NCBI GenBank assembly: GCA_003223415.1
Contig: QHUY01000015.1
Location: forward strand, 14,115-78,114
DNA from: Gemmatimonadota bacterium
Lineage (GTDB): Bacteria; Gemmatimonadota; Gemmatimonadetes; Gemmatimonadales; GWC2-71-9
Length of the DNA stretch: 64,000 nucleotides
Reading direction: 5' to 3'
In this document: piece by piece, positions 37,869 through 58,722 of the stretch
Position numbering within the stretch: position 1 is the stretch's first letter
How the letters are laid out: each line of letters opens with the position of its first letter
Translations under genes and position numbers: made by a program
The notes under the pieces: generated by a model
The model's input: only the letters and a program-made list of their open reading frames with translations
Database searches by the model: none
Told to the model about the DNA's origin: nothing

Positions 37869-38876
37869 TCAGACGACGCGCAGCTCCTGGGCGGCCGTGA
37901 CCTCCGGCCGCCCCGCCACCACCCGCAATGCCCGGACCGCCTCGCGGTCGAACGTCTTTCCCGCCCCTTTCTCCACTTCCTCCAGCGCGCTCCATTGGGG
38001 AAACGCGGCCCGCACCGGCGTCGCCATCTGCAGCGTCTCGAACGCGTCGGCAACCGCCAGGATGCGCACCGTTTCAGGGATCGGAAGCGCCTCGATGTCC
38101 CAATCCTCGCCCACGATCTCGTAGTAGTGGCCGTACTCGCCGATAATCTGCGCGGCACCGCGCATCGCCACCGCCACCGGCACCGCCCCCCCCCCCCCCC
38201 CCCCCCCCCCCCGTAGCAGGGCGGCCACGCGCAGGTTCTCGACCTCCTCCTCCGTCAGTTTCCGCTCGCGCGCGATCGCCGTCGCCACGACGGACACCCG
38301 GTGGCTGTGCCCTTGCTGGTGCCGCTCCGTCGACTCGATGTGGAACGTGAGCAGCTCCAGCGTCGCCAGATACGCGTTCTTCACGTCGTTGAGCTGCTGC
38401 TGCCGTTCCTCGGCGAGCCGCCCGACCACGTACCCGGTGAGGATGAGAAAGCCGGCCCACGGGACCAGCGTGAGCAAGGCGTCCTCGTAGAAACCGGGGA
38501 GCATGTCCAGACCGACAATCGCCTGGAAAAAAAAGACCAGGACGACGATGAACACGCCCGACATCACGGCCAAGCGGCGTCCACCGTAAGAGCCCGCGAG
38601 AATCGTCGCCAGGTAGTAGAAGCTCAGGAACGCCAGCTTCTGCTCGACCAGGTAGTGGATGCCGAGCAGGGAGGCGACTAAGAGGAGGACGAAGATCTGC
38701 TCGAAGTGACGGAAGAAGAACGACTTGGCGCGCTCTAGCGCACGCGTCTCGACCACGTGTGCCTCGGGATGAGGGAACGGGCGCGCCCCAAAGTGGGGAC
38801 TGCGCTGGCACATTGCAAGTAGGTCGATTGCATTGGTCCGACGCGCCGCCACTCTAACTGGCTGTGCGCGCGTCAC
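37869..38876 (-). CDS. Membrane-anchored HD/HD-GYP-like domain protein; metal-binding motif position occupied by poly-Gly
   Basis: TM helices, then HQQGHSHRVSVVATAIA...LRVAALL. A 27-nt C run follows (RGGGGGGGG on this strand) where HD-GYP proteins carry HDIGK. A degenerate C-terminal part ends ...ILAVADAFETL. Confidence 0.6.
   Translation of the reverse strand: MTRAQPVRVAARRTNAIDLLAMCQRSPHFGARPFPHPEAHVVETRALERAKSFFFRHFEQIFVLLLVASLLGIHYLVEQKLAFLSFYYLATILAGSYGGRRLAVMSGVFIVVLVFFFQAIVGLDMLPGFYEDALLTLVPWAGFLILTGYVVGRLAEERQQQLNDVKNAYLATLELLTFHIESTERHQQGHSHRVSVVATAIARERKLTEEEVENLRVAALLRGGGGGGGGAVPVAVAMRGAAQIIGEYGHYYEIVGEDWDIEALPIPETVRILAVADAFETLQMATPVRAAFPQWSALEEVEKGAGKTFDREAVRALRVVAGRPEVTAAQELRVV
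38186..38212. repeat. 27-nt poly-C homopolymer
   Basis: Counted directly. It is in frame (9 codons) within the HD-domain gene. Confidence 0.95.
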
Positions 38877-39962: not shown

Positions 39963-41387
39963 GTGAGCGACCCTTTCGACACGGGCGAGCTGCCCCCGGG
40001 CCTCCGGGAGGAGTACCTCGCGGGGATGCGGGCCGCGCTGGGCGTGCTCGCCGCGATTGTCGAGCGCCTCGCCGCCGCGGCGAACGATCGCGAGGCGCTC
40101 GAGGTGCTGCAGCGGGAGGCCCACAAGATCCACGGCTCCGCCGGCTCGTACGGCTTCATGGACGCCTCCCGCCTCGCGGCCGGCATGGAAGTCACCGCCA
40201 AGGACTGGGTCGCCCACGCGGACGACCGGGATGTCGACCGCGGCTCGCTCGCTCGCTGGTTCGTCGCGCGGCTCGCCGAGATGCTCGGACTCCACGTCCC
40301 CTCCCCCCCCTCCCCCTCCCAACCTCCCCCCCGTCCGCCAGCGGCCGCGGCACCGCGGAAGTTAGGGGTCGGTCCCCCACCTCGCCCGTCGCAAGCGGCC
40401 GCTGCGAAGCCGACCCAACCGCCTCGGCCCGCGTCGCGCAGCGTTCGTCCGCCGGCACGGCCGCAGGTGCCGAGCTCGCCAGCCCCCGCTCCTTCGCGCC
40501 CGAAGCCCAAGGCAGAGCCTACCCGCCCCCCACCCCCCCGGGCACCGACGCCTGCCACCACAGAGCTGCCGTGGATCCTCTCACCCGAGGCCGCAGCGGA
40601 ACCCCCTGCGGCCGCCCACGTCGAACCCGTGCTGGCCGCCCAGCCAATCGAGCCGGTCGCCGAGGTGCCGCCAGCCGCGGCAGAGCCCGAGCCGCCGCTC
40701 ACCGCTCCGCCTGTGGTGGTACCGCCCGAGGCCGCAGCCCCGGCGGTGGAGCCGGAAGCCGTTCCGGCAGGGCCCGAACCGGCACCGCGCGCTCCGTCAG
40801 TCAAGCCCGTCGCCGCGGTGGTGCCAGCCACGCCCGAACCCGAGCCGCCGCCCGCCCCGCCGCCCGCCGCGGAGCCACCCGCGGTGGCAGCCCCGACGGT
40901 AGAGCCGCAGGCCGTCTCGGCAAGGCCCGAACCGGCGCCAAGCTCCCCGCCGGCTGCGCCGCTGCCCGCGGCTGAGGCACCCGTCGCCGATGCGCCGGCG
41001 GTTGCGAGCGACGTGCCAGAGGTGATCTTCGTGGAAGACGACGCGGCGCTCGCCGAGCTGCTCGCGTACGGGCTCCGCACCCGTGGGTACCGGTTCGTGG
41101 CGTACCGCAACGGGCGCGAGGCGCTGCGCGAGCTGATCGCGCTCGACGCCCAGGGAACTCACCCCCTGCTGCTGCTGGACGTCGATCTCCCCGCGCTCGA
41201 CGGGTACTCGATCTTCGCCGCTCTCCAGCGGGAGCGGCCCGGGACGTACCGCGTGGTCTTCACAACGGTGCATGGAACCGAGGAGGAGCAGCTGCGGGGC
41301 CTCGAGGCGGGTGCGCTCGATTACCTCGTGAAGCCGATCAGCCTGCGCGTCGCGCTCGAGAAGATCAAGCGTTGGGTGGGGAGGTGA
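39963..41387 (+). CDS. Hpt domain - long Pro/Ala-rich linker - response-regulator receiver protein
   Basis: Hpt motif EAHKIHGSAGSYGF, approx 230 aa of P/A/E low complexity, and a receiver domain (VIFVEDD...LLLLDVDLPALDG...VKP). Confidence 0.8.
   Translation: MSDPFDTGELPPGLREEYLAGMRAALGVLAAIVERLAAAANDREALEVLQREAHKIHGSAGSYGFMDASRLAAGMEVTAKDWVAHADDRDVDRGSLARWFVARLAEMLGLHVPSPPSPSQPPPRPPAAAAPRKLGVGPPPRPSQAAAAKPTQPPRPASRSVRPPARPQVPSSPAPAPSRPKPKAEPTRPPPPRAPTPATTELPWILSPEAAAEPPAAAHVEPVLAAQPIEPVAEVPPAAAEPEPPLTAPPVVVPPEAAAPAVEPEAVPAGPEPAPRAPSVKPVAAVVPATPEPEPPPAPPPAAEPPAVAAPTVEPQAVSARPEPAPSSPPAAPLPAAEAPVADAPAVASDVPEVIFVEDDAALAELLAYGLRTRGYRFVAYRNGREALRELIALDAQGTHPLLLLDVDLPALDGYSIFAALQRERPGTYRVVFTTVHGTEEEQLRGLEAGALDYLVKPISLRVALEKIKRWVGR
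40600..40980 (+). repeat. Imperfect approx 150-nt tandem repeats encoding the PEPEPP...VEP.AV...PEPAP units
   Basis: Two clear approx 50-aa units (PEPEPPLTAPP...GPEPAPRAPS and PEPEPPPAPPP...RPEPAPSSPP), with a weaker one before them. Boundaries are approximate. Confidence 0.6.
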
Positions 41388-43839: not shown

Positions 43840-44597
43840 GCGCTCGCATCGTCGCGGCCGCGTTCGTCCTGGTCACCCTGCCAGCCAGCCGCCTGGGCGC
43901 CCAAACTGTGCGCGTTGCGACCTGGGGCTCCTACGAGGGCGTTACCGGCAGCCAGAACTGGACCACGGCCGGCGCGCAGGTCACCTTCGCGCCTCCCCAG
44001 GGACACGCTGCGTGGGTCGCCGGGGAGCTGACGGGCCGTTTCGGTGCGCAGGACGGAACCGCGCGCGTGGGCGGCGTCCTCCACCCGATCCCGCGCTGGT
44101 GGATCACCGTGGAAGCGGGGACTGCCGCGCGGCCGGAGTTCATGCCCAAGAACTCGTGGGAGGCGGACGCTACGGCGCTCGTCGCGCGTCGCGCCTCCCT
44201 CGGGCTCAGCTACCGCCGCTGGAACTACGTGGTGGGACCTGTGGACTTCGTGATCCCCCACTTCGCACTCGAGACCCAGTCCATAGCCTGGGACCTGCGG
44301 GTGTTCGTGTCGCGCAACCCCTCGCGGCGCACCGACGCCGCGTTCTACGTCCGGGCCGCCGCGCCCCTCGTCCGCCGCGCTGGCTGGTTGATCTCCGCCG
44401 GGGCTGGCCGGGAGAGCTATCTGGTGGGCGTCGCCCCTTCGCAGCAGGTACGCTCGCTCCAGACGCTCACCGGGGCGGCGGGTGTCCGTGTCAACGCCGG
44501 GAAGGGCGTCACGATCCGGATGGAGGTGAGCGTAGTGAGATCGCGACCGGTGCTGTCACGGCGCGGGCTCACGCTGGGGGCGGAGCGCCGCCTGTAG
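43836..44597 (+). CDS. YaiO-like outer-membrane beta-barrel protein
   Basis: Signal peptide ...SRLGAQT. Approx 250-aa beta-rich protein. ATGA overlap with the GT2 gene. The family call is from memory of the GT2/YaiO pairing. Confidence 0.55.
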   Translation: MSARIVAAAFVLVTLPASRLGAQTVRVATWGSYEGVTGSQNWTTAGAQVTFAPPQGHAAWVAGELTGRFGAQDGTARVGGVLHPIPRWWITVEAGTAARPEFMPKNSWEADATALVARRASLGLSYRRWNYVVGPVDFVIPHFALETQSIAWDLRVFVSRNPSRRTDAAFYVRAAAPLVRRAGWLISAGAGRESYLVGVAPSQQVRSLQTLTGAAGVRVNAGKGVTIRMEVSVVRSRPVLSRRGLTLGAERRL

Positions 44598-44660
44598 CAG
44601 CCGGGCTACACGCGAACCTGCATCGGCTCGTAGAGCGGCCGACGCTGCAGCGTGGGTCGG
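44559..44660. repeat. Left copy of an approx 100-nt imperfect direct repeat (right copy at 58622..58722)
   Basis: Aligned by eye: CGGCGCGGGCTCACGCTGGGGGC...TAG...GGGCTACACGCGAAC.TGCATCGGCTCGT.GAGC.GCCGACGCTGCAG.GTGGG. About nine in ten positions are identical with one 1-nt gap. Weaker similarity extends approx 25 nt further left. Confidence 0.85.
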
Positions 44661-44661
44661 C

Positions 44662-47600
44662 TCAGAAGCGCCGGTGCCAGAACTCCGCCGCGGTCGGGAA
44701 GAGCTTCTCGGTGAGCGCCGCCGACAGCGTCACGAACACGCCGTGCCCGCCGCGCACGGAGAAGTCCGGATCGTTCAGGTTGCCGAACCGATACCCGGTC
44801 GCGACTTCGAGCCCATTCACCGGCCGGAAGGCCAGGGCGGGTGCTCCGTCCCACGCCGTGGCGCCGCTCGTCCGCTCCGTTACCAGCCGGGCGTCGGTGC
44901 GCACGCTCAGCCAGGGACTCAGCGCGACGTTCACGCGGCTGCCGACGTAGTCGGCCCAGGCCGTGAGCGTCCGGGGGGTACCGTCGGAGTAGACGCCATC
45001 GGCTTGCGTGCGACGCACCGCATAGCGGGTGCCGATTTCGAGCGTCGGGACCGGCGTCCAGATCACCTCGGCCGCACCGATCAGCTTGCGCTCGGCGCCC
45101 TGCGACACCAGCACCCCGGCCCCCAACGGATTGCGCGCGTCCGTCCACTGAAGCTTCGCGAGCATGTTCAGCCGGTCGGTGTGCGCGGGCCGGAACGCGA
45201 GACCCCACAGGCTCGACAGCCGGCGGGACAGCGGGGCGCCGGGCCGGGCCTCCTGCGAGAACTCTTGCCGCGACAGCAGGGCGAGCGATGCGTCGAAGGC
45301 CACATCGCCTGCCACAGTGGCGAGCCGGGTGGATTGGAGTGCGCCGTCCTTGTACTCGCCCCGGGCGCTCAGCCGATACGGTGCGCCTTGCGGCAGCAGC
45401 TCCAGGCCGGCACCCGCCGACCAGTAGTCGCCCTCGGTCTGGAGGAACGGCAGCGCGCGCACGGGATCCGCGATCGCGGCGCGACCCACGCCCACGCGCC
45501 GCTCGAACAGCACGTTCACCGCGAGGCCCGGCGCGAGCTGCATCCGGTTGCGGAGCCCAACGACGGCCGCGTTGTTGGCGCCGCTGGCACCACCGATCAG
45601 CTCATAGCTGCCCCACGCCTGCGTCCCGCGCCCCAGGTCCGTGCGCAGGCCGAGGCTCGAGATCGAGTAGTGGCCCTGGCTGTCTGGGCGCGAGACCGCG
45701 CGCTGGCTCGCCTCGAGCGCCACGGCGGGTGCGATCTGATACGTCCCGCCGAAGCCCCAGACCTCCGGTGAGATATCCGGGCCGGCGAGGCGGAAGTGGC
45801 GCCGGGCTTCGGTCCAGAACTGCAGCTGCGGGGACGCCACCCACTTCGCTTTCAGCTCGCCCGCCGTCACCTCGCTGGACGCGGTACTGGTCCCCGACAC
45901 CTGATCATTCGCCACGCCCGCATCCACCTGCAAGGCGGGGCCGAAGGTTTGCACGATGCCGACGCGCGTGTGCTCGCGGCCGACGCCCAGCAGCTCGAAG
46001 TCCTGGCGGGCGTGCTCGGCCCGCAACTCGGTCCCGCCGAGCCGGAACCCGCCTTTCAGGTTTTCCTCGGTCACGCCGGGTTGGAGCGCTACGTTGGACG
46101 GGTTCGTGAACTCGCGGCCGATGCGCATATAGCCGGCCCCGATGTTCACCGCCCCGTTGAACAGGCTGTAGCTGGCTTTCACCGAGGCGGCGACGCCGGT
46201 GGAATCGCCCTGCTCCGCGTAGGCGACCTCTGCGCCCACGTCCAGGGCGCCGAACCGCAGCACCCGCACGTCACCACCGACCAGGCGGTAGCTGGTGATC
46301 GCCTGCTCGGCGTTCACGGCGGTGATGCCGATGCGGAGCGAGTCCACGAGCCCTGCGCCGACGAGCGGCCGCGCGTCCAGCGCCGCCCGGGCACCCGCCA
46401 CGAGCCGCTGCTCGCCGCCGGTGGCTGCCTCGAAGGTGGCGACGATGAACACCGGGTTGCCGTACGCGTCGGCAGCGGGAATCGGCTGCTTGAAGAGGAC
46501 GACGCCGGCGGTGTAGTCGATCTGGTAATCCACGAACCGAGTCAGAGACTGCGTGGCCACGGCGCGCTCGGCGTTCTGGAGGTCCCGCGTCTCGACGCGC
46601 AGGTTCTCCGTCCCCGGCAGCATGTCGGCGGCGAGCTGATAGGGGCCGGAGATGCCCGCGCCGCGGAGCTGCAGCTGTCGCAGTGCCTGGGACGTCAGGC
46701 TGCCGAAGCCACTCCAGGTGACCGCGCCGGTGGTGACGTGGGCGGCGAGCCCCGTCACGGCCCGCCGGTATTGCGCGAGGCGCAGGCCGCTCGCGAAGTC
46801 CGTGGTGGAGAGATCGCCGAACGCCGCCCAGTCGAAGCCGTGCTCGAGCCGGGCCGAGACCCAGTTCTGCGAGGCCGTGCGGGTCTGGAGCTGGCTCGCA
46901 TCCCCGAGGATCGGGTACTGGGCCTCCGCCAACGGATCGGCGCTGCGGCCGAAGGCACCCTGTCCGTCGTTCAGCCGGCGGGAGTCCACCCCGAGCGTGA
47001 GCGACGTCCGGGCATCGAGCCGGCCGCGCGCGGTCAGTGCGCCGTACGCGTCGGGGCTCGCCCCCGCGCCCACCATCCCCACGCCGGTGACCGTGAGCGG
47101 ACGCACCTCGGGGAAGATCTCGAGCGGCACCGTGGCCCGGGCGTCGCCCGACTTGAGCTCGAGCACGCCGCGCCGCACCTCCCGGCCCGGCCGCAGGCTC
47201 ACGACCAGCCAGCCGGCGGAGTCTGTAAGCTGTTGCAGCCCTACCGAGGACGCGTCCGCATCCGCCCCCACCGGCTCCGCGCCGTTCGCGCTCACGGTCA
47301 CGTACGCCGGCTGCACGACCGGAACGCCCCAGGCGTCCAGCACCCGCGCTTTCGTGGCGGCCACCGTGTGCCCATCCGCCATCAGCGTGAGGCGGCTCGC
47401 GCTCACCGCGAACCTGGCCGGGAGGCCCGTCACGTGCACGGCGATGCTGTCCCAGCGCTCGCTGCCCCACGAGTTCTTGATCCGCGCCCGCAGGCGATGC
47501 GGGCCGCGGGCCAGCGGAACGGCGATGAAGTCGAGGACGCCGTCGATCCGCACCGACGCGCTGTCGATCGGCGCCGTGCCGTCGTACAGCACGACCCTCG

Positions 47601-47866
47601 CGCCCGGCTCCCCCTTAACGCCTACGTACACGCGATCGGCCCGGAGCACGGTGCCGTCGACGGGAGCGAAGATCTCGACGCCGGGACCACGCACCAGTGA
47701 CGCCCTGCCCTCCGCCGTCCGCTCAACGGCCGTCCGGGCGGGGGCGACGACCACGGTCTCGGCCGCCGTCGTCCGGATCGTGTCGGCCGGCACTCCGGCG
47801 GCGATCGGCGCCGGAGGGGGAGTGGATGGGGCGGGCGGGGCAGGCGGCAGCTCGGGCGCGTCGACG
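44662..47866 (-). CDS. C-terminal segment of the giant surface protein: P/A linker, Big_1-like Ig domain and approx 800-aa beta-barrel-like region
   Basis: Part of ORF 44662..47964 downstream of the poly-G. It contains LTLMADGHTVAATKARVLDAWGVPV (invasin/intimin-type Big_1 look), then long alternating beta-strand sequence ending ...FWHRRF. Confidence 0.7.
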
Positions 47867-47894
47867 CCCCCCCCCCCCCCCCCCCCCCCCCCCC
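47867..47894. repeat. 28-nt poly-C homopolymer
   Basis: Counted directly. It separates the plausible upstream frame (ORF 47622..50429) from the plausible downstream frame (ORF 44662..47964). Confidence 0.95.
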
Positions 47895-50429
47895 GCGAAC
47901 TACCGACACCGTCCGGCCCACATGCAGCCACATAGTGGCCGAGTCGCGCCGCTCCGACGACCACGCGACGATGCGAATCTCGGCGCCCGGGCGCGCGGGT
48001 GGGATCGGGATCGCCTCGTTGTCGATCCAGTCGTAGCGCGTGAACACCGTGCCGTCGCGGTACACGATGGCCGAATCGGCGACCGGGGTGAACCCTACCA
48101 GGGCGTCCAACGGCGCCGCGAGCGGCTGCCGGACGGTCACTTCGTACCGCACGACCGCACGCCGGCTGCCGACGAGACGAGGCTCGGGGCTGAACGAGAG
48201 CACGGCGGAATCGCGCGCCTGCGGCACCGGTACCGCCACGAACTTGAACTCCACGGGTCGGCCGCCTTCGCTGGGCTGGCGCCCCTCAGGGGGTTGGTGC
48301 CCTTGAGCGGGTTGGCGTCCTGGGACGGGTTGGCGCCCTTCGGCGCGGCGCGGCGCGAGCGGGACGACGCGGAAGTCCACCCGCGGAGTCGTCCAGCCGG
48401 AGGCCTCGACGATCTGAATGTCGTCGCTCACCAGTCGGTAGTCCTGGGAGAGCGACTGCGGGTCAAGCCGGAACGCGTGCCGACCCGGCCGCAGGTTCGT
48501 GAACGAGAACTTGCCGGTGGAGTCGGTCGTGACGACCTGGCCATCCTCGGTCCAGATGTCGATGCCTGCCAGGCCGCCGTCCGTCGGCCGTTGCACCTCA
48601 CTGCCCTCCCGATCGACCCACACCTTCCCGATCACCGCTCTGGTGTCCATCGGCCAGGCGCGCCGCACCTGCACCCAGGCCACGGCCTGCGGCGAGACGG
48701 GCTGAAGGGCGCCGGCGCGCGCGCTGGCGATCGCCCGGACCTCGGCCACGGGCCCCGGCGCGGAGGCGAGCGCCACCACGTAATGCAGCGTCCGCGTCGC
48801 CCCGGGTGCGAGCGGCGCCATCGTCACGAGAATCAAGTGATTCCCAGCCACCTGCACGGAATCCGCGCCGACTGCGGACCCGCGCGCGTAGCTGCCACCT
48901 GTGGGCAGCGTGTTGTCGATCCGGATGTCGGAGATCGGCACGATGCCGGCATTGTGCACGACCTCGGTGTAGGGAATCACCTCGCCGATGCCGACCTCCA
49001 ACGCCTCGGCTGTCAGGTCGAGTCCCAGCGCCGCGGTGGGCGGTCCGATAAGCGCCAGCTGGGCGGCGCTAGCGCTCTGCGCGGTGGCGTTCGTCCCAGT
49101 CAGCGTGGCGACGTTGGTCGCCCACACCGTATCCCGCACCGTGCCGCTCACCTGCAGCACGAGATTGATGACCCCGGTATCCCCCGGCGCGAGGTTGCCC
49201 AGCGCCCAGCTCAACACCGGTCCCACCGTGGACGGGGCCGGCGCAGCGCTCACGTAATTCAGGCCTGCCGGAAGCGTGTCGGTGAGGACGACATTGGACA
49301 CCGGGGCGGCGCCGGCGGCGTCGCCGTAGCGCAGCGTGAATTGGACCTGCTGTCCGACCGGCGCCTGCGGCGGGCCCACGAGCGCCTTAGTCAGGGTGAG
49401 CGCCGGGACGAGGACGTTCGTCTGCACGGCGTTGGAAAAGGCCGTGTCAGAGGTTCCCGCCCGCACGTAAGTCGCGTGGCCGCGGTTCGTCACGGTGCGC
49501 GCCGGCCCCGAATCGACCTTGGCCTGGAACGTCACCGTGCCCCCCGTGCCGCCGGCCACGACCCCCAGGGTCACGACCACCACGCCCTTTCCCGCAGCGA
49601 CGAGGGAGCCGGCATCGTCACCCGTGGCGTCGGTCAATGGAGTACCGTTCCAGCGCATCGATCCGGCGACGTAGGACACACCCGCGGGGATACTGTCCGC
49701 GAGCGTGGCGCTGGAGTCCGTCCCGCTGCCGGCGGCGGCGTAGTCGAGGGTATAGGTGAGCACGTCGCCCGTGACCGCCGTCAGGCGGTCCACCTGCTTG
49801 GTGAGCCCGATCGTGACCGCGCCCGCCGCTACGACGTCGAGCCGATCCGGCACCGAGCTGCTCACCGCGGCGTTGAACCGGCTGGTGGCGGTCACCGTGA
49901 TCGTGTCGCTCACGCCCACGCTGGCGCCGCCCGGCACCGCGACCCGCACGAGCAGGGAGGCGGCTCCGCCGTAGGCCAGCGGGACCGGCCCCGTGAGCAG
50001 GGAGTCGCCGGCGTCCAGGATGCCGTTACCGTTCCAGTCGCGATACTGCGTGACCGGCCATCCGCGGGCGGAGACGGCGACCACGGTGAACGAATCGGCT
50101 CCGTTCCCGGCGTTGGTGAGCGTGTGCGCGAAGACAGCGGTTGCGCCCGGGGCTCCGCTGGTGGCTCGCGGCGGCTGCAGCGTCACCCCGGCCACCTGCC
50201 CGACCAGGAGCGCCACCGTGTCGGAGGCCAGGGTGTATCCCGTCCCAGCCAAGGTGAAGGACAGGGTCGCCCAGTTGGAGACCTGGGTCCCCGCTTGCGT
50301 TCCTTGGGCTTCCAGCGCCGGTGCGGCACGCAGCCCGAAAGCAAAGAGGAAGGCGGCGGCCCAGCGCGCGGCCGCACGGCCGCGGCGGGCGCACCGCCCC
50401 CTCTCCACTGTCCGGGTCCCGAGTCGCAT
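47895..50429 (-). CDS. N-terminal segment of the giant surface protein: signal peptide, multiple DUF11-type repeats and an SdrD-B/CarboxypepD_reg-like domain
   Basis: Repeated pattern PG..V.Y.L...N.GNG.D.F plus LTK....TAV.GDVLTYTL...LAD.IPAGVSYV. GKVWVDREG...GLAGIDIWTEDGQVVTTDSTGKFSFTNLRPGRH. A short GRQP-type repeat (EGRQPVPGRQPAQGHQPPEGRQPSEGGRP). Confidence 0.75.
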
Positions 50430-50442
50430 GGGCCGTCGTCCG

Positions 50443-51666
50443 TTAGTTGATGCTGACCCGCAGCTCGAACGTGGCGCTGGCGCTCGCCGCCAGAACGCCG
50501 CCCGTGCCCGTGTAATTCCCGGTCACGTTCTGCCCGCTCACCACGATGCTCCAACCGGTGCTCGAGCTCGTCGAGACGTAGGTCACTTGCGCCGGCAGCG
50601 CGTCGGTCACCTGCACGCTGGACGCAGACGTGCCCCCGTTATTGGTCACGGTGAACCGGTAGCGGATGACCTGCCCGGGGACGACGCTTCCGGCGACGGG
50701 AGTGACCCCGTCGTCCAAGAACGCCGCCTTCGCGAGCGTCAGGTTCGGCTTGATGACCGTCAGGTCCATGAAGCCGTCGTCGAACGTCGCCGGCTGCCCC
50801 ACCGACCGGGCGCGCAGATACAGCGTGTCCGTCGAGCCGCCTGCCACGTTCGCCACGTTGTAGACGACGGTGACCGCCTGCGACGCCGCGGGCGCCAACG
50901 AGATGCGCGCGCTGTCTCCCGCGGCCCCGTTCACCGAAACGATCGTGATGACCGGCGAGCCCGGGCTCGTGGCGATGAGGTCGATGTTGTCGTTCCCGTT
51001 CCCGTTGTTCCCGATGCTGAACGTGAACGAATAGCCGCTCCCCGGGAGGCGCTGCACGTTTTGGCCCCCGTGGGGCGACGTCGCCACGCCGTACACCGTC
51101 GCCGGCGTGATGGTGCTGAAGGCGCTGCCCGAAGCCGCCGGCGTGCGTCGCGAATTGGCGGTGAGCGTGTAGATCGTGCTCACGCCACCTTGCCCGCTCG
51201 CCACGTTATAGACGATCTTGAGCGTGATCGAGCCGCCCTGGGCGATGCCCACGGTCGCCAGCGCCGTGTTCAAGGCCGCCAGCGTGCCATAGGTCGTGGC
51301 CCCGTAGCGGTACCCCGTCACCGTGATCACCCCCGCGACGGAGATGTTCTCGGAGATCGTCATGCTGTCCGTGCCGTTCCCCGCGTTCATCACTGTGAAC
51401 GTCATCGTATCCGCCGTACTGGGCGACGCGGAGCTCGGCGTTGGAGTGTTGGCGGTCACGCTCACGCCGGCCTTGAAGCCAACCGTCACCGAGACCGAGC
51501 CGCTGACCGCCGTGTAGGGGTTGCTATTCGCGTCGGTGTAGGTCGCGGTCGCCGTATTCGTGATGACCGTGCCTTCCGGCGTCTGCGCCAGCGCCCCGCC
51601 GGCGGCGACCACCAGGGCGACCGCGGCAAGGACGAGGCTCTCTGTCCACTTCAGGTTCCCGAGCAT
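50443..51666 (-). CDS. Secreted DUF11-repeat protein B (407 aa)
   Basis: GGAGGA RBS 7 nt before the ATG, signal peptide ...GGALAQT, and a C-terminal DUF11 unit (PGQVIRYRFTVTNNGGTSASSVQVTDALPAQVTYVS). Its central domain is paralogous to protein A (52625..53875). Confidence 0.8.
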   Translation of the reverse strand: MLGNLKWTESLVLAAVALVVAAGGALAQTPEGTVITNTATATYTDANSNPYTAVSGSVSVTVGFKAGVSVTANTPTPSSASPSTADTMTFTVMNAGNGTDSMTISENISVAGVITVTGYRYGATTYGTLAALNTALATVGIAQGGSITLKIVYNVASGQGGVSTIYTLTANSRRTPAASGSAFSTITPATVYGVATSPHGGQNVQRLPGSGYSFTFSIGNNGNGNDNIDLIATSPGSPVITIVSVNGAAGDSARISLAPAASQAVTVVYNVANVAGGSTDTLYLRARSVGQPATFDDGFMDLTVIKPNLTLAKAAFLDDGVTPVAGSVVPGQVIRYRFTVTNNGGTSASSVQVTDALPAQVTYVSTSSSTGWSIVVSGQNVTGNYTGTGGVLAASASATFELRVSIN

Positions 51667-51705
51667 CTGTGATTCCTCCTCAAGGTTCGTTTCAGCGGCC
51701 GCGGG

Positions 51706-52218
51706 CTACTTCGCGTCGCCTGGGGCTTCACTGACCTGGGTGCGAAACTCCGCCATCACCCGCGCTTGCGGCGCCAAGGATCCCAGCACCGTCCAACGGA
51801 CGTGCGTGTACAGCTGACGCGGCGCAGGCTTCTCCACCTTTCGGCCCTCTTCGACCACCTGGATCGTCGGCTGAGCCGAATAGCTCTTGCCGCCGTCGAT
51901 CGAGTATTCGATCCGCGCGGGGTGATCCGCCGCGGCCGAGCCGGGCACGTAGATCATCCCCTTGGGGATCGGGTCGACGAATTGGATGTTCTTCACGGGG
52001 CCGGCCGTGACGTTCGTGAACACCAGGGCGTAGCGGATCACATCGCCGGGGCGCGCCACGGCGCGAGTGTCCTGCCCGCCGGCTGTTGCCACCGTCATGT
52101 TGTGGGCGGTGATCACGAGCGGCTTGGGGGGGGGGACCTGCGCGTGCGCGGCCACCACTCGCGGCGCGACCAGCGCGGCGCTCATCAGCCCGATCGACAG
52201 CAATCGCAGCAGTTTCAT
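51706..52218 (-). CDS. Secreted single-DUF11-domain protein (170 aa)
   Basis: AAGGAG RBS 8 nt before the ATG of MKLLRLLSIGLMSAALVAP...AHAQ. PGDVIRYALVFTNVTAGPVKNIQFVDPIPKGMIYVPGS. The longest ORF (to 52254) would give an ATGA overlap with the zinc-ribbon gene. Confidence 0.75.
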   Translation of the reverse strand: MKLLRLLSIGLMSAALVAPRVVAAHAQVPPPKPLVITAHNMTVATAGGQDTRAVARPGDVIRYALVFTNVTAGPVKNIQFVDPIPKGMIYVPGSAAADHPARIEYSIDGGKSYSAQPTIQVVEEGRKVEKPAPRQLYTHVRWTVLGSLAPQARVMAEFRTQVSEAPGDAK

Positions 52219-52250
52219 GGGTGCCATCTCCTTGTGAGTTCTCTTGTGAG

Positions 52251-52448
52251 TCATTGTTTGGCTCGCTTTGCGTCGGACCGGCCCGCGTCCCGCGGGTCGA
52301 GCGTGGTGCCGGCTGCGTCAGACTCGCCGGTGTGGGCGTCACCCCACCGGAAGACCGTTTCGCATTGCGGGCACACCACGAGCTCGCCCAGGACCTGCGT
52401 GCGGCCGAAGAACTTGAGCGCCGAACACCGGGGGCAGCGAAGTACCAT
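52251..52448 (-). CDS. MJ0042-type zinc-ribbon protein (65 aa)
   Basis: CPRC...(18)...CPQC with the FRW motif after the second pair. AGGAG 10 nt upstream of the ATG. Confidence 0.6.
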   Translation of the reverse strand: MVLRCPRCSALKFFGRTQVLGELVVCPQCETVFRWGDAHTGESDAAGTTLDPRDAGRSDAKRAKQ

Positions 52449-52480
52449 TAGCGACCTGCTCCTTTCGCCAGCGCGAGATG

Positions 52481-52494
52481 GCAGGTCCTATGCC
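52481..52494 (-). promoter_or_regulatory. Candidate sigma-54 promoter (GGCAT-N5-CTGC)
   Basis: The minus strand reads CGGCATAGGACCTGCC. The GG and GC dinucleotides have canonical -24/-12 spacing. It lies approx 30 nt upstream of the zinc-ribbon ATG with an RBS in between. Confidence 0.35.
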
Positions 52495-52570
52495 GGTTCA
52501 GGCCGATGGTGCTAATGGATTGTGGATGAGCGAGTTACGACGTCTAGGGGAGGGGGGGGAGAGCGCCGCG

Positions 52571-52600
52571 CGTTACTGAACGGTAACGTCGGGAGTAACG
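52571..52600. promoter_or_regulatory. Cluster of three GTTAC/GTAAC half-sites (candidate enhancer)
   Basis: CGTTACTGAACGGTAACGTCGGGAGTAACG, approx 80-105 nt upstream of the candidate promoter at 52481. Confidence 0.3.
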
Positions 52601-52624
52601 AGAAAGCCCGGCTTTCCGTGCCGC

Positions 52625-53875
52625 TCAGCGGATCTGCGCGACAAACTGAAGCGTGCCCGTGTTATTCGGAGCCGAGGAGCTGAGCGGGTTCTGCAAGCGC
52701 CAGCGGACGCGATTGACGCAGCGGTCGTAGCCGGCCGGCGCGCTGCACGCGCCGCTGGCCGGAACGTACGTCCACGTCGCGCCGCCGTTGTTCGAGTAAT
52801 CGACCACGACCGACACACCGGCGGGCAGCGTGCTCACGACGCTGCCCACCTGGAACTGGACCGCGGCGGGAAGCGTATCCACGACCACGACGCTCGCGGC
52901 GTTGCTGCTGCCGATGTTGCTGATGGCGACCGTATACGCCAGGTTCGCGCCAGGCAGCTGGGTGCCGCCGGGACTCACGCTCTTGGCGATCGTCATGGTC
53001 GGCCGCACCACGGTGAGCGTCAGCTTCCCGGTGTCCGCTGTCGCCGGACTCCCGACCGCGCGGGCCTTGAAGACGAGAGTGTCCTTCGTTCCCGACGCCG
53101 CCATGGCCACGGCATACGTCACAGTGGCGATGGCGGAGCTGCCCGCCACGAGGCTCGTCAGGCGGGCACTGTCGGGGTTGGCGCCCTGCGTGATCCCCGG
53201 GCCGGCGATCGAGACGGTCGTGAGCACCGTGCCGGGCCGCCTCGCCGTCAGCAGATCGTAGCTAGTCAAGCCGTTGCCGGTGTTCGTCACCGTGAAGGCC
53301 GCCGTGTAGTTGACGCCGTTGCTCGGCAGCTGGCTGGCGGTCGCAGCGTGCGGGCTCACCGTCACGGTGAACACCTTCGCCACGATCGTCTTGGTGCGGG
53401 CGTCGGTTGCGACGACGGCGCCGCTGGGGCCGCCGGTGATCAGCCCCAGGCGGCTCGCTGCGGACGGGGCGGTGAAGTTCGTGAAGTTGAGCCCGGAGAC
53501 CGTGATCTGCTCGCCATTCCCGAAGTTCGTGGTGACGTTCATGAAGAGATCCAGGTTGCCGTTCGCATAGCTCACGCTCGTCGAGACCTTGCCTGCGGCC
53601 GAGCCCGTGATCGTCGCGGTCGTGAAGGTGGGGTCCCACGTCATGTTCAGGCCCGCCGGAATCCGCACGCGGATGTCGGTGCTCGCCTTGATTTGGCCGC
53701 CGGAAGTTGCTGTGATGGTGATCGGGCTCATCGCTGTGCTCGGATCGCCCACCACGAAGGTCTGATTGGCAGCCGAGGAAATCGTCTGCGCGGCGAGGGG
53801 GGCGGGGCACACCGTCGCCCCGACGCCGAGGCAGGCGAGCAGGATGCCCGCGCTGAGCGAGAGCTGGGTCTTCAT
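52625..53875 (-). CDS. Secreted DUF11-repeat protein A (416 aa)
   Basis: Start taken at MKTQLSLSAGILLACLGVG...AAQ. C-terminal DUF11 unit (PGANLAYTVAISNIGSSNAASVVVVDTLPAAVQF). Its central domain is paralogous to protein B. Confidence 0.8.
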   Translation of the reverse strand: MKTQLSLSAGILLACLGVGATVCPAPLAAQTISSAANQTFVVGDPSTAMSPITITATSGGQIKASTDIRVRIPAGLNMTWDPTFTTATITGSAAGKVSTSVSYANGNLDLFMNVTTNFGNGEQITVSGLNFTNFTAPSAASRLGLITGGPSGAVVATDARTKTIVAKVFTVTVSPHAATASQLPSNGVNYTAAFTVTNTGNGLTSYDLLTARRPGTVLTTVSIAGPGITQGANPDSARLTSLVAGSSAIATVTYAVAMAASGTKDTLVFKARAVGSPATADTGKLTLTVVRPTMTIAKSVSPGGTQLPGANLAYTVAISNIGSSNAASVVVVDTLPAAVQFQVGSVVSTLPAGVSVVVDYSNNGGATWTYVPASGACSAPAGYDRCVNRVRWRLQNPLSSSAPNNTGTLQFVAQIR

Positions 53876-53891
53876 GTCACCCGGACCAAGC

Positions 53892-53906
53892 GCAAGCGCT
53901 GTGCCC
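53892..53906 (-). promoter_or_regulatory. Candidate sigma-54 promoter (GGCAC-N5-TTGC)
   Basis: The minus strand reads GGGCACAGCGCTTGC. This matches TGGCACG-N4-TTGC at all invariant positions with exact spacing, 16 nt before the ATG at 53875. Confidence 0.5.
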
Positions 53907-53951
53907 ACCGCTCTAGGATGCAGCCGTAGTTAGGCCAACGAGTTAGCAACC

Positions 53952-53984
53952 GGTTACGTGATCTTCGGTTACCGTGCGGTAACC
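53952..53984. promoter_or_regulatory. GGTTAC ... GGTTACC-GTGC-GGTAACC palindrome cluster (candidate enhancer, or hairpin after the EBP gene)
   Basis: Perfect 7-bp palindrome with a 4-nt spacer plus a third half-site. It lies in the 85-nt gap between the EBP stop and the promoter candidate. Confidence 0.35.
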
Positions 53985-53993
53985 ACGGCGGTA

Positions 53994-55409
<1,416 letters not shown>

Positions 55410-55472
55410 CGGTCCGATATTTGTCCCGCGCCCCGCTAATATTGGCGACCGCAACGCGCGGAGCCAGGACCT

Positions 55473-55844
55473 ATGGCCGGCACCTTCCGGGCTCTGATCA
55501 TCGATGACGACCGCGACCTCCTCTTGCTCGTACGCAAGACGCTCGAGTTCATGGCGGGGTGGGAAGTCGTGACGGCGGCCTCGGGCGCCGCGGGGATCGA
55601 GCTGGCCCGGAGCGCCGCTCCGAACGTGGTCTTGGTGGACGTGATGATGCCCGAGATGGACGGCTACGAGGTGTGCCGGCGCCTCAAGGCGGAACCCGCG
55701 ACCGCCGGCGTCCCCATCGTTTTGCTGACGGCCCGCCGCGACCTCGATCAGCGCCAGCTCACGGCGGCGGGGGCAGCCGGCGTGCTGTTCAAGCCGTTCC
55801 AGCCGGATCAGCTGGCCCGTCAGCTCCGCGAGTTGTGCCCGTGA
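55473..55844 (+). CDS. Single-domain response-regulator receiver
   Basis: ALIIDDD...VLVDVMMPEMDG...FKP. 123 aa. Confidence 0.85.
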   Translation: MAGTFRALIIDDDRDLLLLVRKTLEFMAGWEVVTAASGAAGIELARSAAPNVVLVDVMMPEMDGYEVCRRLKAEPATAGVPIVLLTARRDLDQRQLTAAGAAGVLFKPFQPDQLARQLRELCP

Positions 55845-58570
55845 CCGCGGCCGATCCCCTCAGCGAAGTCCGGGCCGAGTTCGCGGCCGGGCTGGGGCAG
55901 CGGATCCAGACGATGCGGGCGGTGCTGGAGCGACTGGAGCACGGCTTCCAGCGCGAGGACGCGGAGGCCCTGTACCGCGCCGCCCATTCTTTGACCGGGA
56001 CGGCCGGGAGTTTCGGCGCCGATGGGCTCGCGCACGTAGCGGGCGATCTCGAGGGCCTGGCGCGCAGCTGGCTGGAGCACGGGGACTCGTCGCCTGAGGA
56101 GTGGCGCGTGGCCGCCGCGGCCATCGGGGAGCTCGACCTCGCCGCACGTGAATACCGCGCCACCGTGCAGTCGGGCACTGCCCGGTCGTCGGCAGCCCGC
56201 CTCGCGGTCGTGGGGGAGCTCTCGTCCCTGATCCACGCCGCCGTGGACATGCGCGAGATCTTCCAGGGCGCGATCCAGAAGGTCCAGCGGGTGCTCGACT
56301 TCCGGCGGGCCAGCGTAGTGCTCATCGACGAGGCGGCGACGCACTACTACGTCCACACGCTGTACGACCGGGCGCGCGGCGGGTTCGTCCCGGGGGAAGC
56401 GGTGTTCTCGGTCGCGCAGGGCGTGACGGGCGAGGCGATCCGCACGGGGCGACCGATCCGCGTGGACTCGCTGCCGGGCACTGAGGGCATCCTGCTGCAG
56501 GAAGGGAAGCGCGTCTCGGCGATGATTGTGCCGTTGCACGTCGGTGACCGCGTGATCGGCGCACTGAATTTCGGGCACGAAGACGCGGGTCATTACACGG
56601 AGGACGACCTCGATTGGGCGGTCGTCCTGGGCCGGCAGATCGAGACCTCACTCTACTATTCCAAGCTGCTCAGCACCATCGCGCAGCAGCGCGAGGCCCT
56701 GGCGCGGGAGCACGCGGCCATGCAGGCCCAGCGGAACCAGCTGGAGGCGCTGATCGACGCCAGTGACGCCGCGATCATGCTGGTCGGGCCCGATCGCCGG
56801 ATCGCCTACGCGAATGCCGAGATGGCCAAGCTGGTGGGGATTCCCCGGGAGGCCGTGCTCGGAGCGAGCCTGGAGAGCCTGCACCGCTTCTTCGCGGGGT
56901 CCTTCGTCGATCCGGCTGCGCTCGCCGCTCAGGGGGAGGCCCTGGCGGGCGAGGCAACGCTGCGCGACCGCGTGGACCTCGCGTTCCCCCGGCGGGCGGT
57001 TTATCAGCGCGAGGTGGCGCCCGTGCGGGACCGCGGCGGGGCGCTGCTCGGGCATATCGTGCTGTACCGGGACGTGACCCACGAAGTGGAGGTCGAGCGC
57101 GCGAAGTCCGAGTTCGTCTCCGTGGTCAGCCACGAGCTCCGCACCCCGATGACGTCGGTGAAGACGTCGTTGGCCCTGTTGCTCGCCGGGGCCGGCGGAC
57201 CCCTGGAGGCCGCCCCGAGAGAGCTGCTCGAGATCGCCCTGCGCAACGCCGACCGCCTGATCCGGTTGGTGAACGATCTCCTCGACCTCTCGCGCCTCGA
57301 GGCTGGGCGCATGGAGTTCCGGCTCGAGCCCGTGTCGCTCGAGGACAGCGTGGCGGCCGGGCTGGAGACAGTGGCGGCGTTCGCCGACGAACAGGGGGTG
57401 ACGCTCACCACCGGGCCGTCCGCTGAGCCGCAGGTCGTGCTGGGCGTGCGCGATCGCGTGCTGCAGGTGTTCGTCAACCTCCTCGCGAACGCGATCAAGT
57501 TCTCGCCCCGTGGCGGCCTGGTGGAGGTGCGGTGGTGGCGCGAGGACGACTGCGCCGTAACTCGCATCTCGGATCAGGGGCCGGGGATCCCGCCCGACAA
57601 GCTCGGCGTCATCTTCGAGCCGTTCACACAGCTCGACAGCTCGACGACGCGGGAGCACGGCGGCGCGGGCCTCGGCCTCACGATCACCCACCGCATCGTC
57701 GACGCGCTCGGCGGCGCTGTGTGGGCGGAGAGCGAGGTCGGGAGCGGAGCACGGTTCTTCGTCCGCTTGCCGCTGGCTTCGCCGCAGCAGCTCGTCCAGC
57801 CACCGGCCGCGACCGCCGCGCCCACGCCAGTAGAAGCCACGGTGCTCCTCGTGCACGGCGACTCGGACTGGCGGCGCCTGGCCGCGGCGCGCCTGGCGGC
57901 CGAGGGCTGGCGCGTCACGCCGGTCGCGACCGGTGGTGAAGCGCTGGCCTGCTTGGACCAACAGCCTGTGGACCTCGTCCTCGCAGCGCTGGAGCTGCCG
58001 GACATGCACGGGCTGGACTTCGTCCAGCGGCTCCGCCGGGGGACAGCGACGTTCGACACCCCCGTGCTGGTCGTGTCCGACGCGGAAGTGAGCGCCGCGA
58101 CTCTCGAGTACGGCGCTGAGGAATGGGTACCGGCGGACCCGCAAGAGCTGATCGGTCCGGCTCGACGGCTGCTGTCGGCCGGCGGAGGGAGGAGGGGAAG
58201 GGGGCGACCCGTCGTGCTGCTGGTCGAGGACGACCCGGCGGTGCGTGACGCCTTGACTAAGATGTTGCGCCGGGCCGGCTACGTGTGCCTAGGAGTGAGC
58301 GACGCCGCCGCCGGCCTCGCATTCGTGCGCAGCCGCCGACCGAGCCTGATCATCACCGACCTCCAGATGGCAGGCATGGACGGCCTGGCCTTCCTCGAGG
58401 AAGTGCGCCGCCAGCCGGAGTTGCGCGACGTGCCGGCGATCTTGCTGAGCGCCCACGGGGCCGAGGCCGCGTCCGAGCGGGTGCGCCGACTCGGCGCGCA
58501 TTTTGTCGCGAAGCCGTTCGACACCGAGGCACTTCTCGACCAGGTCCGCGACATGGCGACGAAGCCCTAG
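55841..58570 (+). CDS. Hybrid sensor histidine kinase (Hpt-GAF-PAS-HisKA-HATPase-REC-REC)
   Basis: Hpt AAHSLTGTAGSFG, GAF-like segment, PAS-like segment, H-box SHELRTPMTS, N-box NLLANAIKFS, G-boxes DQGPGIP and GGAGLGLTI, then two receiver domains. GTGA overlap with the upstream receiver gene. Confidence 0.9.
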   Translation: MTAADPLSEVRAEFAAGLGQRIQTMRAVLERLEHGFQREDAEALYRAAHSLTGTAGSFGADGLAHVAGDLEGLARSWLEHGDSSPEEWRVAAAAIGELDLAAREYRATVQSGTARSSAARLAVVGELSSLIHAAVDMREIFQGAIQKVQRVLDFRRASVVLIDEAATHYYVHTLYDRARGGFVPGEAVFSVAQGVTGEAIRTGRPIRVDSLPGTEGILLQEGKRVSAMIVPLHVGDRVIGALNFGHEDAGHYTEDDLDWAVVLGRQIETSLYYSKLLSTIAQQREALAREHAAMQAQRNQLEALIDASDAAIMLVGPDRRIAYANAEMAKLVGIPREAVLGASLESLHRFFAGSFVDPAALAAQGEALAGEATLRDRVDLAFPRRAVYQREVAPVRDRGGALLGHIVLYRDVTHEVEVERAKSEFVSVVSHELRTPMTSVKTSLALLLAGAGGPLEAAPRELLEIALRNADRLIRLVNDLLDLSRLEAGRMEFRLEPVSLEDSVAAGLETVAAFADEQGVTLTTGPSAEPQVVLGVRDRVLQVFVNLLANAIKFSPRGGLVEVRWWREDDCAVTRISDQGPGIPPDKLGVIFEPFTQLDSSTTREHGGAGLGLTITHRIVDALGGAVWAESEVGSGARFFVRLPLASPQQLVQPPAATAAPTPVEATVLLVHGDSDWRRLAAARLAAEGWRVTPVATGGEALACLDQQPVDLVLAALELPDMHGLDFVQRLRRGTATFDTPVLVVSDAEVSAATLEYGAEEWVPADPQELIGPARRLLSAGGGRRGRGRPVVLLVEDDPAVRDALTKMLRRAGYVCLGVSDAAAGLAFVRSRRPSLIITDLQMAGMDGLAFLEEVRRQPELRDVPAILLSAHGAEAASERVRRLGAHFVAKPFDTEALLDQVRDMATKP

Positions 58571-58621
58571 CGGACTGGCTCAAAGCGGCCGCACGCGTCA
58601 AGTCGTGCGGTCCTCCCACCG

Positions 58622-58722
58622 CGGCGCGGGCTCACGCTGGGGGCAGAGCGCTGCTCTTAGCGGCGGGCTACACGCGAACATGCATCGGCTCGTGGAGCAG
58701 CCGACGCTGCAGGGTGGGATGG
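58622..58722. repeat. Right copy of the approx 100-nt imperfect direct repeat (left copy at 44559..44660)
   Basis: It contains a dead copy of the YaiO-like C-terminus (…RRGLTLGAERCS-stop versus RRGLTLGAERRL-stop, with TAG at the aligned position). It also contains the functional 3' end of the membrane-protein gene on the opposite strand. Confidence 0.85.

Follow-up and report, generated by a model that had tools for sequence, protein, structure and literature searches.

A 14-kb surface-protein operon between 98-nt direct repeats in Gemmatimonadales: a candidate insertion with long target duplication

Introduction

The question raised by this locus is how a gene-dense block without any recognisable mobility gene came to lie between two direct repeats which carry the 3′ ends of both flanking genes. 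The locus is part of a 64,000-nt stretch of DNA (the window) of a Gemmatimonadota bacterium (assembly GCA_003223415.1, contig QHUY01000015.1, positions 14,115 to 78,114), which stems from a soil Gemmatimonadales population. The block encodes CLIPPER (DUF11) surface proteins, a sigma-54 activator and two-component proteins. On one side it is flanked by a gene for a YaiO-like outer-membrane protein, on the other by a convergent gene for a multi-pass membrane protein. An initial annotation, made from the letters alone, had proposed that an element of about 13.96 kb integrated here by recombination across the site. Comparing the window with related loci and contigs (labelled L001, L011, L127 and so on), we favour, with a probability of roughly 0.55, the reading that the repeats were left behind by an insertion with long target duplication, brought about by a host process that is independent of a recombinase.

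The repeats contain two copies of one gene junction

The two repeat copies (Table 1) have the same orientation and are 88.8% identical over 98 nt, with 10 mismatches and one 1-nt gap (E 2e-28; MAFFT, repeat finder and all-versus-all blastn). They represent the top blastn self-match within the window. The repeat is not dispersed: blastn finds no third copy in the window, and BLAST among the related loci finds no additional copies beyond the orthologous empty sites and the junctions. The longest exact word common to both copies has 23 nt and lies at the left edge of the repeat. An identity of about nine in ten positions with a single gap had been estimated by eye and agrees with these alignments. 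The right-hand bounds had been set at 44660 and 58722 and have to be moved to 44656 and 58718. A weaker similarity, thought to extend about 25 nt further to the left, is at chance level, as its 15 of 25 gapped matches compare with 13.5 +/- 2.0 for random 25-mers of the window and are equalled by 30% of random 25-mer pairs.

Each copy comprises a complete empty site, that is the last 39 nt of the YaiO-like gene with its TAG, a spacer of 7-8 nt and, on the opposite strand, the stop codon and the last 48 nt of the membrane-protein gene. Both copies abut the block ends directly. In the left copy the YaiO-like end is the live one (TAG at 44595-44597), and an 8-nt spacer separates it from a dead membrane-protein end. 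In the right copy a dead YaiO-like end and a 7-nt spacer precede the live membrane-gene end, which starts at 58668 (HPTLQRRLLHEPMHVRV, followed by the stop). This layout of live and dead ends had been recognised initially and is confirmed when the copies are read against the open reading frames (ORFs).

We also considered that the repeat acts as a bidirectional terminator or structured element, which was rejected as no intrinsic-terminator match occurs at either junction. The sole match (58481-58499) lies inside the histidine kinase (HK) gene, and RNA folds of both junctions on both strands gave z-scores of -1.4 to +0.3.

Table 1. Coordinates of the repeats, the block and the flanking genes within the window (stop: translation ends in a stop codon).
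Feature	Positions	Strand	Basis or remark
Live YaiO-like outer-membrane beta-barrel gene, 253 aa	43836-44597	+	3′ of PgaC-like GT2; 3′ end in left repeat
Left repeat copy	44559-44656		MAFFT, repeat finder, blastn
Dead membrane-protein gene 3′ end	44606-44656	-	RPTLQRRPLYEPMQVRV, stop; 47/51 identical to live end 58668-58718
Inserted block, 13,965 nt	44657-58621		Absent from relatives' empty sites; gene-dense
Giant CLIPPER(DUF11)/SdrD_B/C-terminal beta-barrel gene	44662-50429	-	Pfam; ORFs 44662-47964 and 47622-50429
CLIPPER/DUF11 protein, 407 aa	50443-51666	-	Pfam
Small DUF11-type repeat protein, 182 aa	51706-52254	-	TIGR01451, 44.5 bits
CLIPPER/DUF11 protein, 427-aa ORF	52625-53908	-	Pfam
Sigma-54-type -24/-12 promoter-like site, GGGCAC-N5-TTGC (GGGCACAGCGCTTGC)	53892-53906	-	One consensus mismatch
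NtrC-type sigma-54 activator (receiver, AAA+, HTH_8)	53994-55454	-	Pfam
Single-domain response regulator, 123 aa	55473-55844	+	Response_reg
Hybrid histidine kinase (Hpt-GAF-PAS-HisKA-HATPase-2x receiver), 909 aa as called	55841-58570	+	Pfam
51-nt tail 3′ of HK stop	58571-58621	+	Insert-derived, not target; short hairpin inside
Dead YaiO-like gene 3′ end	58622-58660	+	...RRGLTLGAERCS, stop; 37/42 identical to live end
Right repeat copy	58622-58718		Near-identical or identical in independent contigs L001, L002, L186
Live multi-pass membrane-protein gene, 320 aa	58668-59630	-	Stop and last 48 nt in right repeat

The junctions are recovered from independent assemblies

The exact YaiO-like protein occurs on 12 contigs from varied samples and assemblers. 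The left junction, read through a 64-nt intergenic remnant into the block, is present in ten independent contigs (L089-L098; 99.3-99.9% identical), the right one in L001, L002, L185 and L186, and all contigs at least 99% identical to the window carry the block. A metagenome mis-assembly joined via the shared repeat or via a homopolymer run could be suspected because the window contains three such runs of 26-28 nt, one of them in the block, where several independent contigs break. But L090, L101, L106 and L127 cross the giant gene unbroken. Since independent contigs from different samples and assemblers hold both junctions, and since 23 nt is the longest exact match between the two copies, we regard a mis-join as practically excluded.

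The three runs consist of C (G on the minus strand) and are located at 155-180, 38186-38212 and 47867-47894. At the last of them the independent contigs L096 and L097 terminate, and L090 reads C23 plus about 39 extra nt. The run could be truly hypervariable, or its variation could be an artefact of dark cycles in sequencing, and the window sequence is probably collapsed at this place.

Empty sites in relatives and the age of the insertion

Around the membrane-protein gene 88 loci, obtained from look-ups and one metagenome scan, were compared. In about 35 of them this gene is directly convergent with a YaiO-like gene, with stop codons 5-14 nt apart and no block in between, and these loci span 70-93% membrane-protein identity. 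Of the empty sites, L011 is the closest to the window (flanks 86-89% identical), and each of the two repeat copies can be aligned with its stop-7 nt-stop site base for base; the block is also absent in L003, L006 and L007. The two genes had been supposed to be former convergent neighbours, and these loci, L011 included, bear this out. A local duplication was to be preferred if all relatives carried the block with the same repeats and none had an empty site. Empty sites do exist, and the insertion reading therefore stands.

The repeat copies differ by about 11%, the four-fold sites of the window and L011 or L003 by 24-31%, and on this ground the insertion would have followed the split from these relatives. 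As one half of each copy drifts freely while the other half is constrained, we would date it roughly halfway back to this split. This estimate agrees with an ancestral empty site and with a block that is fixed in strains at least 99% identical. The suspicion that the event is old is in line with this divergence.

If instead the block, or an earlier 98-nt tandem duplication, were ancestral, the empty sites of the relatives would be secondary, precise deletions between the repeats. Recombination between repeats would indeed give back a clean empty site, and the block is found at the same junction in lineages with flanks as divergent as 73-78%. But the about 35 empty loci, which occur at all sampled depths, would demand many independent precise losses, and the block copies are much younger than the divergence of their flanks. 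In addition, each lineage has its own type of spacer at the empty site (7 nt in L011, 12 nt in L033) and occupied junctions match the local type, which argues that the duplications are younger than the spacer divergence. The present data also suggest that occupied sites are nested within clades of empty sites. An ancestral block is thus very unlikely.

The region from the membrane-protein gene to the PgaC-like locus is a variable spot among the lineages. Examples are L003 (10964-15840), L063 (10961-12846) and L078 (10982-20978). In some lineages the short YaiO-like porin is replaced by a PgaA/PgaB-like polysaccharide deacetylase together with a TPR protein and a protein of 470 aa, a type of cargo of 4-5 kb. 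Others have a 416-aa secreted protein (about 1.9 kb) between the membrane gene and YaiO/GT2, and others are without the whole glycosyltransferase locus. In L003, a relative which is 93% identical, the membrane gene and a convergent TPR gene are separated by a spacer that consists of a run of 12 G (10964-10977). Flanking repeats are not a general property of this hotspot, as the cargo of the other lineages at the spot has none.

The block carries no mobility genes

Pfam searches with all block genes revealed no recombinase, integrase, transposase or prophage gene, no R, M or S gene of a restriction-modification system and no nuclease domain. There is no tRNA gene in the window. The intergenic gaps of the block have at most 370 nt and contain no hidden recombinase ORF, and terminal inverted repeats are absent, the best inverted match between the 400-nt termini being 11 nt. 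The block starts 5 nt past the stop codon of the giant gene for an outer-membrane protein (OMP) and ends 51 nt past the HK stop codon. That neither integrase, transposase nor tRNA is visible, as stated in the initial annotation, is therefore supported by the domain search, the tRNA search and the inspection of gaps and termini. A foreign composition of the block was rejected, since GC, GC3 (GC at third codon positions; 0.85-0.92 inside, 0.88-0.91 outside) and tetranucleotide profiles (correlation 0.988) are indistinguishable from the flanks.

Nevertheless the block could be an integrative island, the repeats being attL and attR produced by a tyrosine or serine recombinase which is encoded in trans or was lost. 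Integrase junctions typically show direct repeats by which the target genes regain their 3′ ends, and the 23-nt identical stretch at the left edge of the repeat could act as a core. Against such an island speaks that no recombinase is encoded in or next to the block, neither in the window nor in L101, L106, L107 and L127, and that, given the short distances to the terminal stop codons, there is no room for a decayed integrase.

Relatives of the block and lateral exchange

Homologues of the giant gene and of the kinase are found throughout the Gemmatimonadota with 42-92% identity. The whole operon is conserved and its neighbours vary by lineage, namely tRNA-Trp, a 3-keto-disaccharide hydrolase gene (L099/L120), an ABC transporter (L100) or an aldehyde dehydrogenase region (L103-L105). 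In L108 (4296-4578) and L115 (3709-3891) the operon lies with its OMP end directly against tRNA-Trp, at the 3′ end of this tRNA gene, and tRNA-His is adjacent; L108 belongs to the same metagenome-assembled genome (MAG) as the empty YaiO/membrane site L007. The 3′ end of a tRNA gene is a classic integrase target, and the contact with tRNA-Trp counts in favour of an integrative island. Integrases were found neither beside the tRNA-linked nor beside the other operon copies. L106 (10697-17980) holds 3.9 kb and 3.2 kb of integrase-less cargo at the 3′ ends of tRNA-Trp and tRNA-His, which would fit an island as well; this cargo encodes NAGPA-like, S41 peptidase, kinase-like and VWA proteins.

Several lineages carry a related block at the same junction and in the same orientation as the window. 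In L107 (13167-13300) a live YaiO gene is followed by a 7-nt spacer, a 40-nt remnant of the membrane gene, 71 nt and the OMP stop, and in L187 (5350-5380) by the 12-nt spacer of the L033 type, about 11 nt of membrane-gene remnant and the OMP stop. On the other side, the HK stop in L101 (12709-12742) and L102 (3307-3340) is followed by 4 nt, a YaiO remnant of 9-13 nt, a 12-nt spacer as in L033 and the membrane gene. This recurrence speaks for a site-specific integrase, but the lengths of the remnants vary between lineages, from 98 nt in one to about 35 nt in another and 40 nt plus 71 nt in a third, and show no fixed att core. Taken singly, the remnants of the window measure 51 and 41 nt, those of L107 40 nt plus 71 nt, that of L187 about 11 nt and that of L102 9-13 nt. 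The same-junction cases could reflect either a single origin with spread by recombination and erosion of the remnants, or repeated insertion at a preferred site.

For L107 the remnant, the spacer and at least the last 100 nt of YaiO are of the window/L011 type (37-38 of 40 positions), and the remaining YaiO-GT2 region is L033-like. The best explanation of this mosaic, on the sequences compared, is that L107 recombined homologously with the chromosome of a donor in which the block was already present. As the donor-type tract runs at least 60 nt past the repeat into YaiO, it points to ordinary homologous recombination with a chromosome and not to an att site borne by an element.

Comparing the window with L101/L102, four-fold sites differ by 17% in HK and 22% in NtrC, but by 44% and 52% in the adjacent membrane-protein and M19 genes. 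This difference shows that the block, or at the least its regulatory half, was exchanged laterally between lineages. L101 resembles the window in its regulatory half (88-94%), whereas in their structural halves L106 and L107 are both at the same distance from the window. The MAG SMAG_U4508 holds two operon copies (L106, L107) which are 88-89% identical. The first copy is linked to the membrane gene on the kinase side and to tRNA-Trp on the OMP side, and the second to YaiO on the OMP side. Either a mixed bin or an inversion that involved a native copy and an inserted one could account for the pair.

Given this exchange, the lineage of the window might itself have received the block by RecA-dependent recombination from a related donor already occupied at the site, either by a Campbell-type single crossover of a circle excised via the repeats or by a double crossover in the flanks, so that the repeats would be part donor, part recipient. 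The difference between block and flank divergence and the mosaic of L107 show that such transfers are to be reckoned with. However, this would merely move the origin of the duplication to another genome, where a primary event is still required. Furthermore, the window flanks just outside the repeats are 86-90% identical to L011 and L003 on both sides without a switch in relatedness, and none of the foreign lineages sampled resembles the dead halves more closely than the live halves of the window itself do. We therefore consider a secondary acquisition by the window lineage improbable.

A second candidate site

Both ends of the operon are present in 13 loci. Repeats are not a universal property of the operon, as 11 of the 13 lack them, which also speaks against an integrase; the only locus besides the window with flanking repeats is L127. 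There the neighbours of a 70%-related block are genes for an amino-acid permease and for a 23S_rRNA_IVP protein, again a convergent pair. The repeats at 1460-1511 and 15411-15462 comprise 52 nt at 98% identity (65 nt at 92%), a second repeat at 1498-1534 and 15614-15650 comprises 37 nt, and the repeat regions overall extend over 1447-1534 and 15399-15650. On the kinase side the copy consists of a dead piece of the IVP gene with an internal deletion, and on the other side this gene is intact. Judged from these sequences L127 looks like a younger event of the same kind. Repeats at a second site could likewise be expected of an integrase.

Proposed course of the insertion

What remained of the initially proposed integration is the 13,965-nt block in a once contiguous site with both gene ends regenerated. 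A recombination of the attP x attB or Campbell type is not established; the block is an ordinary gene-dense operon, conserved across the Gemmatimonadota and without terminal repeats. A target-site duplication in which both copies derive from the recipient's own site fits at least as well. Considering the points on both sides, we judge an integrase-made island to be unlikely, though a serious candidate, and prefer a host-driven insertion with long target duplication.

For this insertion we infer the following course. In the ancestor the YaiO-like porin gene and the gene for the 320-aa membrane protein would have been arranged tail to tail, with stop codons 7-8 nt apart. The self-contained operon segment, presumably from another Gemmatimonadales copy of the same operon, would have been inserted at this junction, with staggered target breakpoints 98 nt apart, one within the end of each gene. 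The 98-nt interval would then have been placed on both sides of the insert, so that each gene is complete and has the dead end of its neighbour beside it. As the breakpoints lie within both genes, only a duplication of the interval leaves both intact, which explains the survival of the product.

The agent would be host DNA repair or replication rather than self-mobilisation, a view based on the block having neither a recombinase nor defined termini. One candidate route starts from staggered breaks, which were filled in and to which a linear fragment was joined; another is a template switch during replication that re-entered the target 98 nt upstream. The microhomology at the junctions amounts to 0-2 nt when judged against the native DNA downstream of the OMP gene in L106 and L108 (TGAGCCGAC...). 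After the split from the closest empty-site relatives the insertion would have become fixed in the population, and recombination within or close to the flanks may later have carried copies of the block into other lineages.

Several observations weigh against this course. The blocks at the same junction (L107 and L187 on the left, L101/L102 on the right) have the same orientation, differing remnant lengths and lineage-specific spacers. Such a repeated use of one junction hints at a preferred site, and this is not expected of illegitimate events that occur at random; in L108 and L115 the block adjoins the 3′ end of tRNA-Trp. A stagger of 98 nt is, to our knowledge, no documented product of any characterised bacterial end-joining pathway. 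Finally, with 98 nt only, an origin of the dead halves from the recipient's own site can not be separated from one in a close donor.

These observations leave room for a more far-reaching and rather doubtful idea: the sigma-54/CLIPPER operon might be a recombinase-less mobile unit of the Gemmatimonadales, which inserts repeatedly between convergent genes and thereby copies tens to hundreds of target bases. The 98 nt of the window, the about 35 nt with local spacer type in the lineages of L187 and L102 and, at a different junction, the 52 nt of L127, which were probably about 250 nt originally, are consistent with it. If true, there would be an uncharacterised insertion pathway with a preference for operon ends and convergent-gene junctions, for which a trans-acting recombinase or a template switch linked to replication or topoisomerase are candidates. 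Long target duplication would then not arise as a side effect of restriction enzymes but would be a way in which genes are gained generally.

Gene content of the block and its flanks

The giant gene is broken into its two overlapping ORFs at the homopolymer run 47867-47894, and its homologues are single ORFs of 1,780-1,942 aa. Its C-terminal part of about 1,000 aa matches no family model and is predicted to form an outer-membrane barrel. CLIPPER/DUF11 domains have a CnaA-like fold and occur in cell-surface fibrillar adhesins (PMC12617251). From its gene content the block is a self-contained, putatively signal-regulated operon for a surface structure with adhesin-like and outer-membrane proteins.

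The activator gene is separated from the first CLIPPER gene by a gap of 85 nt, which contains, on the minus strand, the -24/-12 site of Table 1 and a perfect palindrome, GGTTACCGCACGGTAACC (53967-53984). The two are likely to represent the operon promoter and the binding site of the activator, as far as can be told from the sequence. Because the window-wide count of such -24/-12 sites is not above chance, it is the position that makes this site a promoter candidate. The only sizeable gap of the block (52255-52624, minus strand, 370 nt) contains a small zinc-ribbon-like ORF (...CPRC...CPQC...), the counterpart of a 65-aa gene called in L089, L101 and L105.

Of the flanking genes, the one on the left had been called YaiO-like. 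Its product aligns with TIGR04390 (OMP_YaiO_dom) over nearly the full length (positions 15-229 of 230; E 5e-6), which is the basis of the label, but the score of 26.5 bits is below the cutoff of 32, and there is no Pfam match. As the gene follows a PgaC-like glycosyltransferase gene, a function as polysaccharide-export porin is a reasonable reading. For the 320-aa membrane protein neither Pfam nor NCBIfam gave a family. The gene for a 474-aa Hpt/response-regulator protein, located upstream of the HEAT-GT2-YaiO genes, contains a tandem repeat of 150 nt (40637-40786 and 40790-40939, 76.7% identical).

Comparison with known systems

An example of an integrase-type island is PAISt at the 3′ end of bacA (PMC4057263). 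With such islands and with integrative and conjugative elements the block shares the bracketing direct repeats, the regenerated target 3′ end and the passage between related species. Unlike them it has no integrase, excisionase, transfer genes, spare end bases or compositional signature, and its repeat length is not constant. Membership in this group was rejected, as there is no tyrosine or serine recombinase gene at a block end and no fixed att core.

Target duplications of transposons and insertion sequences (IS) usually have less than 10 bp, and 19-26 bp in the case of IS1630 (PMC2853133). The block resembles these elements in being bracketed by a direct duplication of the target, but they need a transposase and terminal inverted repeats, both absent here. 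A DNA or composite transposon was rejected for these reasons and for the 98-nt length of the duplication.

Homology-facilitated illegitimate recombination in natural transformation was reportedly described by de Vries and Wackernagel in 2002 and by Prudhomme and co-workers in the same year. It uses a homologous anchor at one end and a join with few bases of microhomology at the other, and normally deletes recipient DNA. The left junction of L107, with a crossover in YaiO, and the right junction of L102, joined at AGCG(G/C)A, are similar to its products. But since deletion and not duplication is the rule, this process alone fails to explain the 98 nt of the window.

The closest counterpart is the insertion with long target duplication as defined by Furuta, Abe & Kobayashi (2010, NAR; PMC2853133), who cite Nobusato et al. 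2000 (their ref. 37) as the source of the concept. Their criteria are repeats of more than 30 bp, which are single-copy at the empty site of a relative, an insert of less than 20 kb and the absence of mobility genes. The cases described are restriction-modification genes in Helicobacter, Haemophilus, Neisseria, Campylobacter, Burkholderia and others, with repeats of 46 to about 420 bp that sometimes overlap gene 3′ ends. The mechanism is unexplained; the authors suggest that double-strand breaks made by restriction enzymes drive the process (PMC2853133). Nearly all of the papers listed under the term concern restriction-modification systems or Helicobacter.

The window shows the same features: repeats of 98 nt abut an insert of 13,965 nt, the about 35 empty loci, L011 among them, offer the undivided site, mobility genes are absent, and gene 3′ ends are overlapped. 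As in the published cases, the repeat length differs from case to case and the mechanism is unexplained. The cargo is different, since all published cases carry restriction-modification genes and the block is a 14-kb regulatory and surface-protein operon without a nuclease. Furthermore, the duplication covers two convergent gene ends here, and the host is an uncultured member of the Gemmatimonadales and thus of another phylum. Overall the insertion in the window fits this known but rare class.

Insertions of this kind have been catalogued since 2000 almost only for restriction-modification genes, and the mechanism was credited to breaks made by these systems. The window is a clean case with both empty and occupied sites, in which a nuclease-free operon leaves the same footprint, and it suggests that the process can drop DNA into a tight tail-to-tail junction with both genes undamaged. 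It also supplies concrete junction sequences with which reads of the source soil metagenomes can be searched for excision products and empty sites. The case would become more interesting if the recurrence of the junction and L127 reflected a real operon-specific insertion pathway. Together, the window and L127 suggest that whole operons can be gained by a general, host-driven route without the genes of a mobile element.

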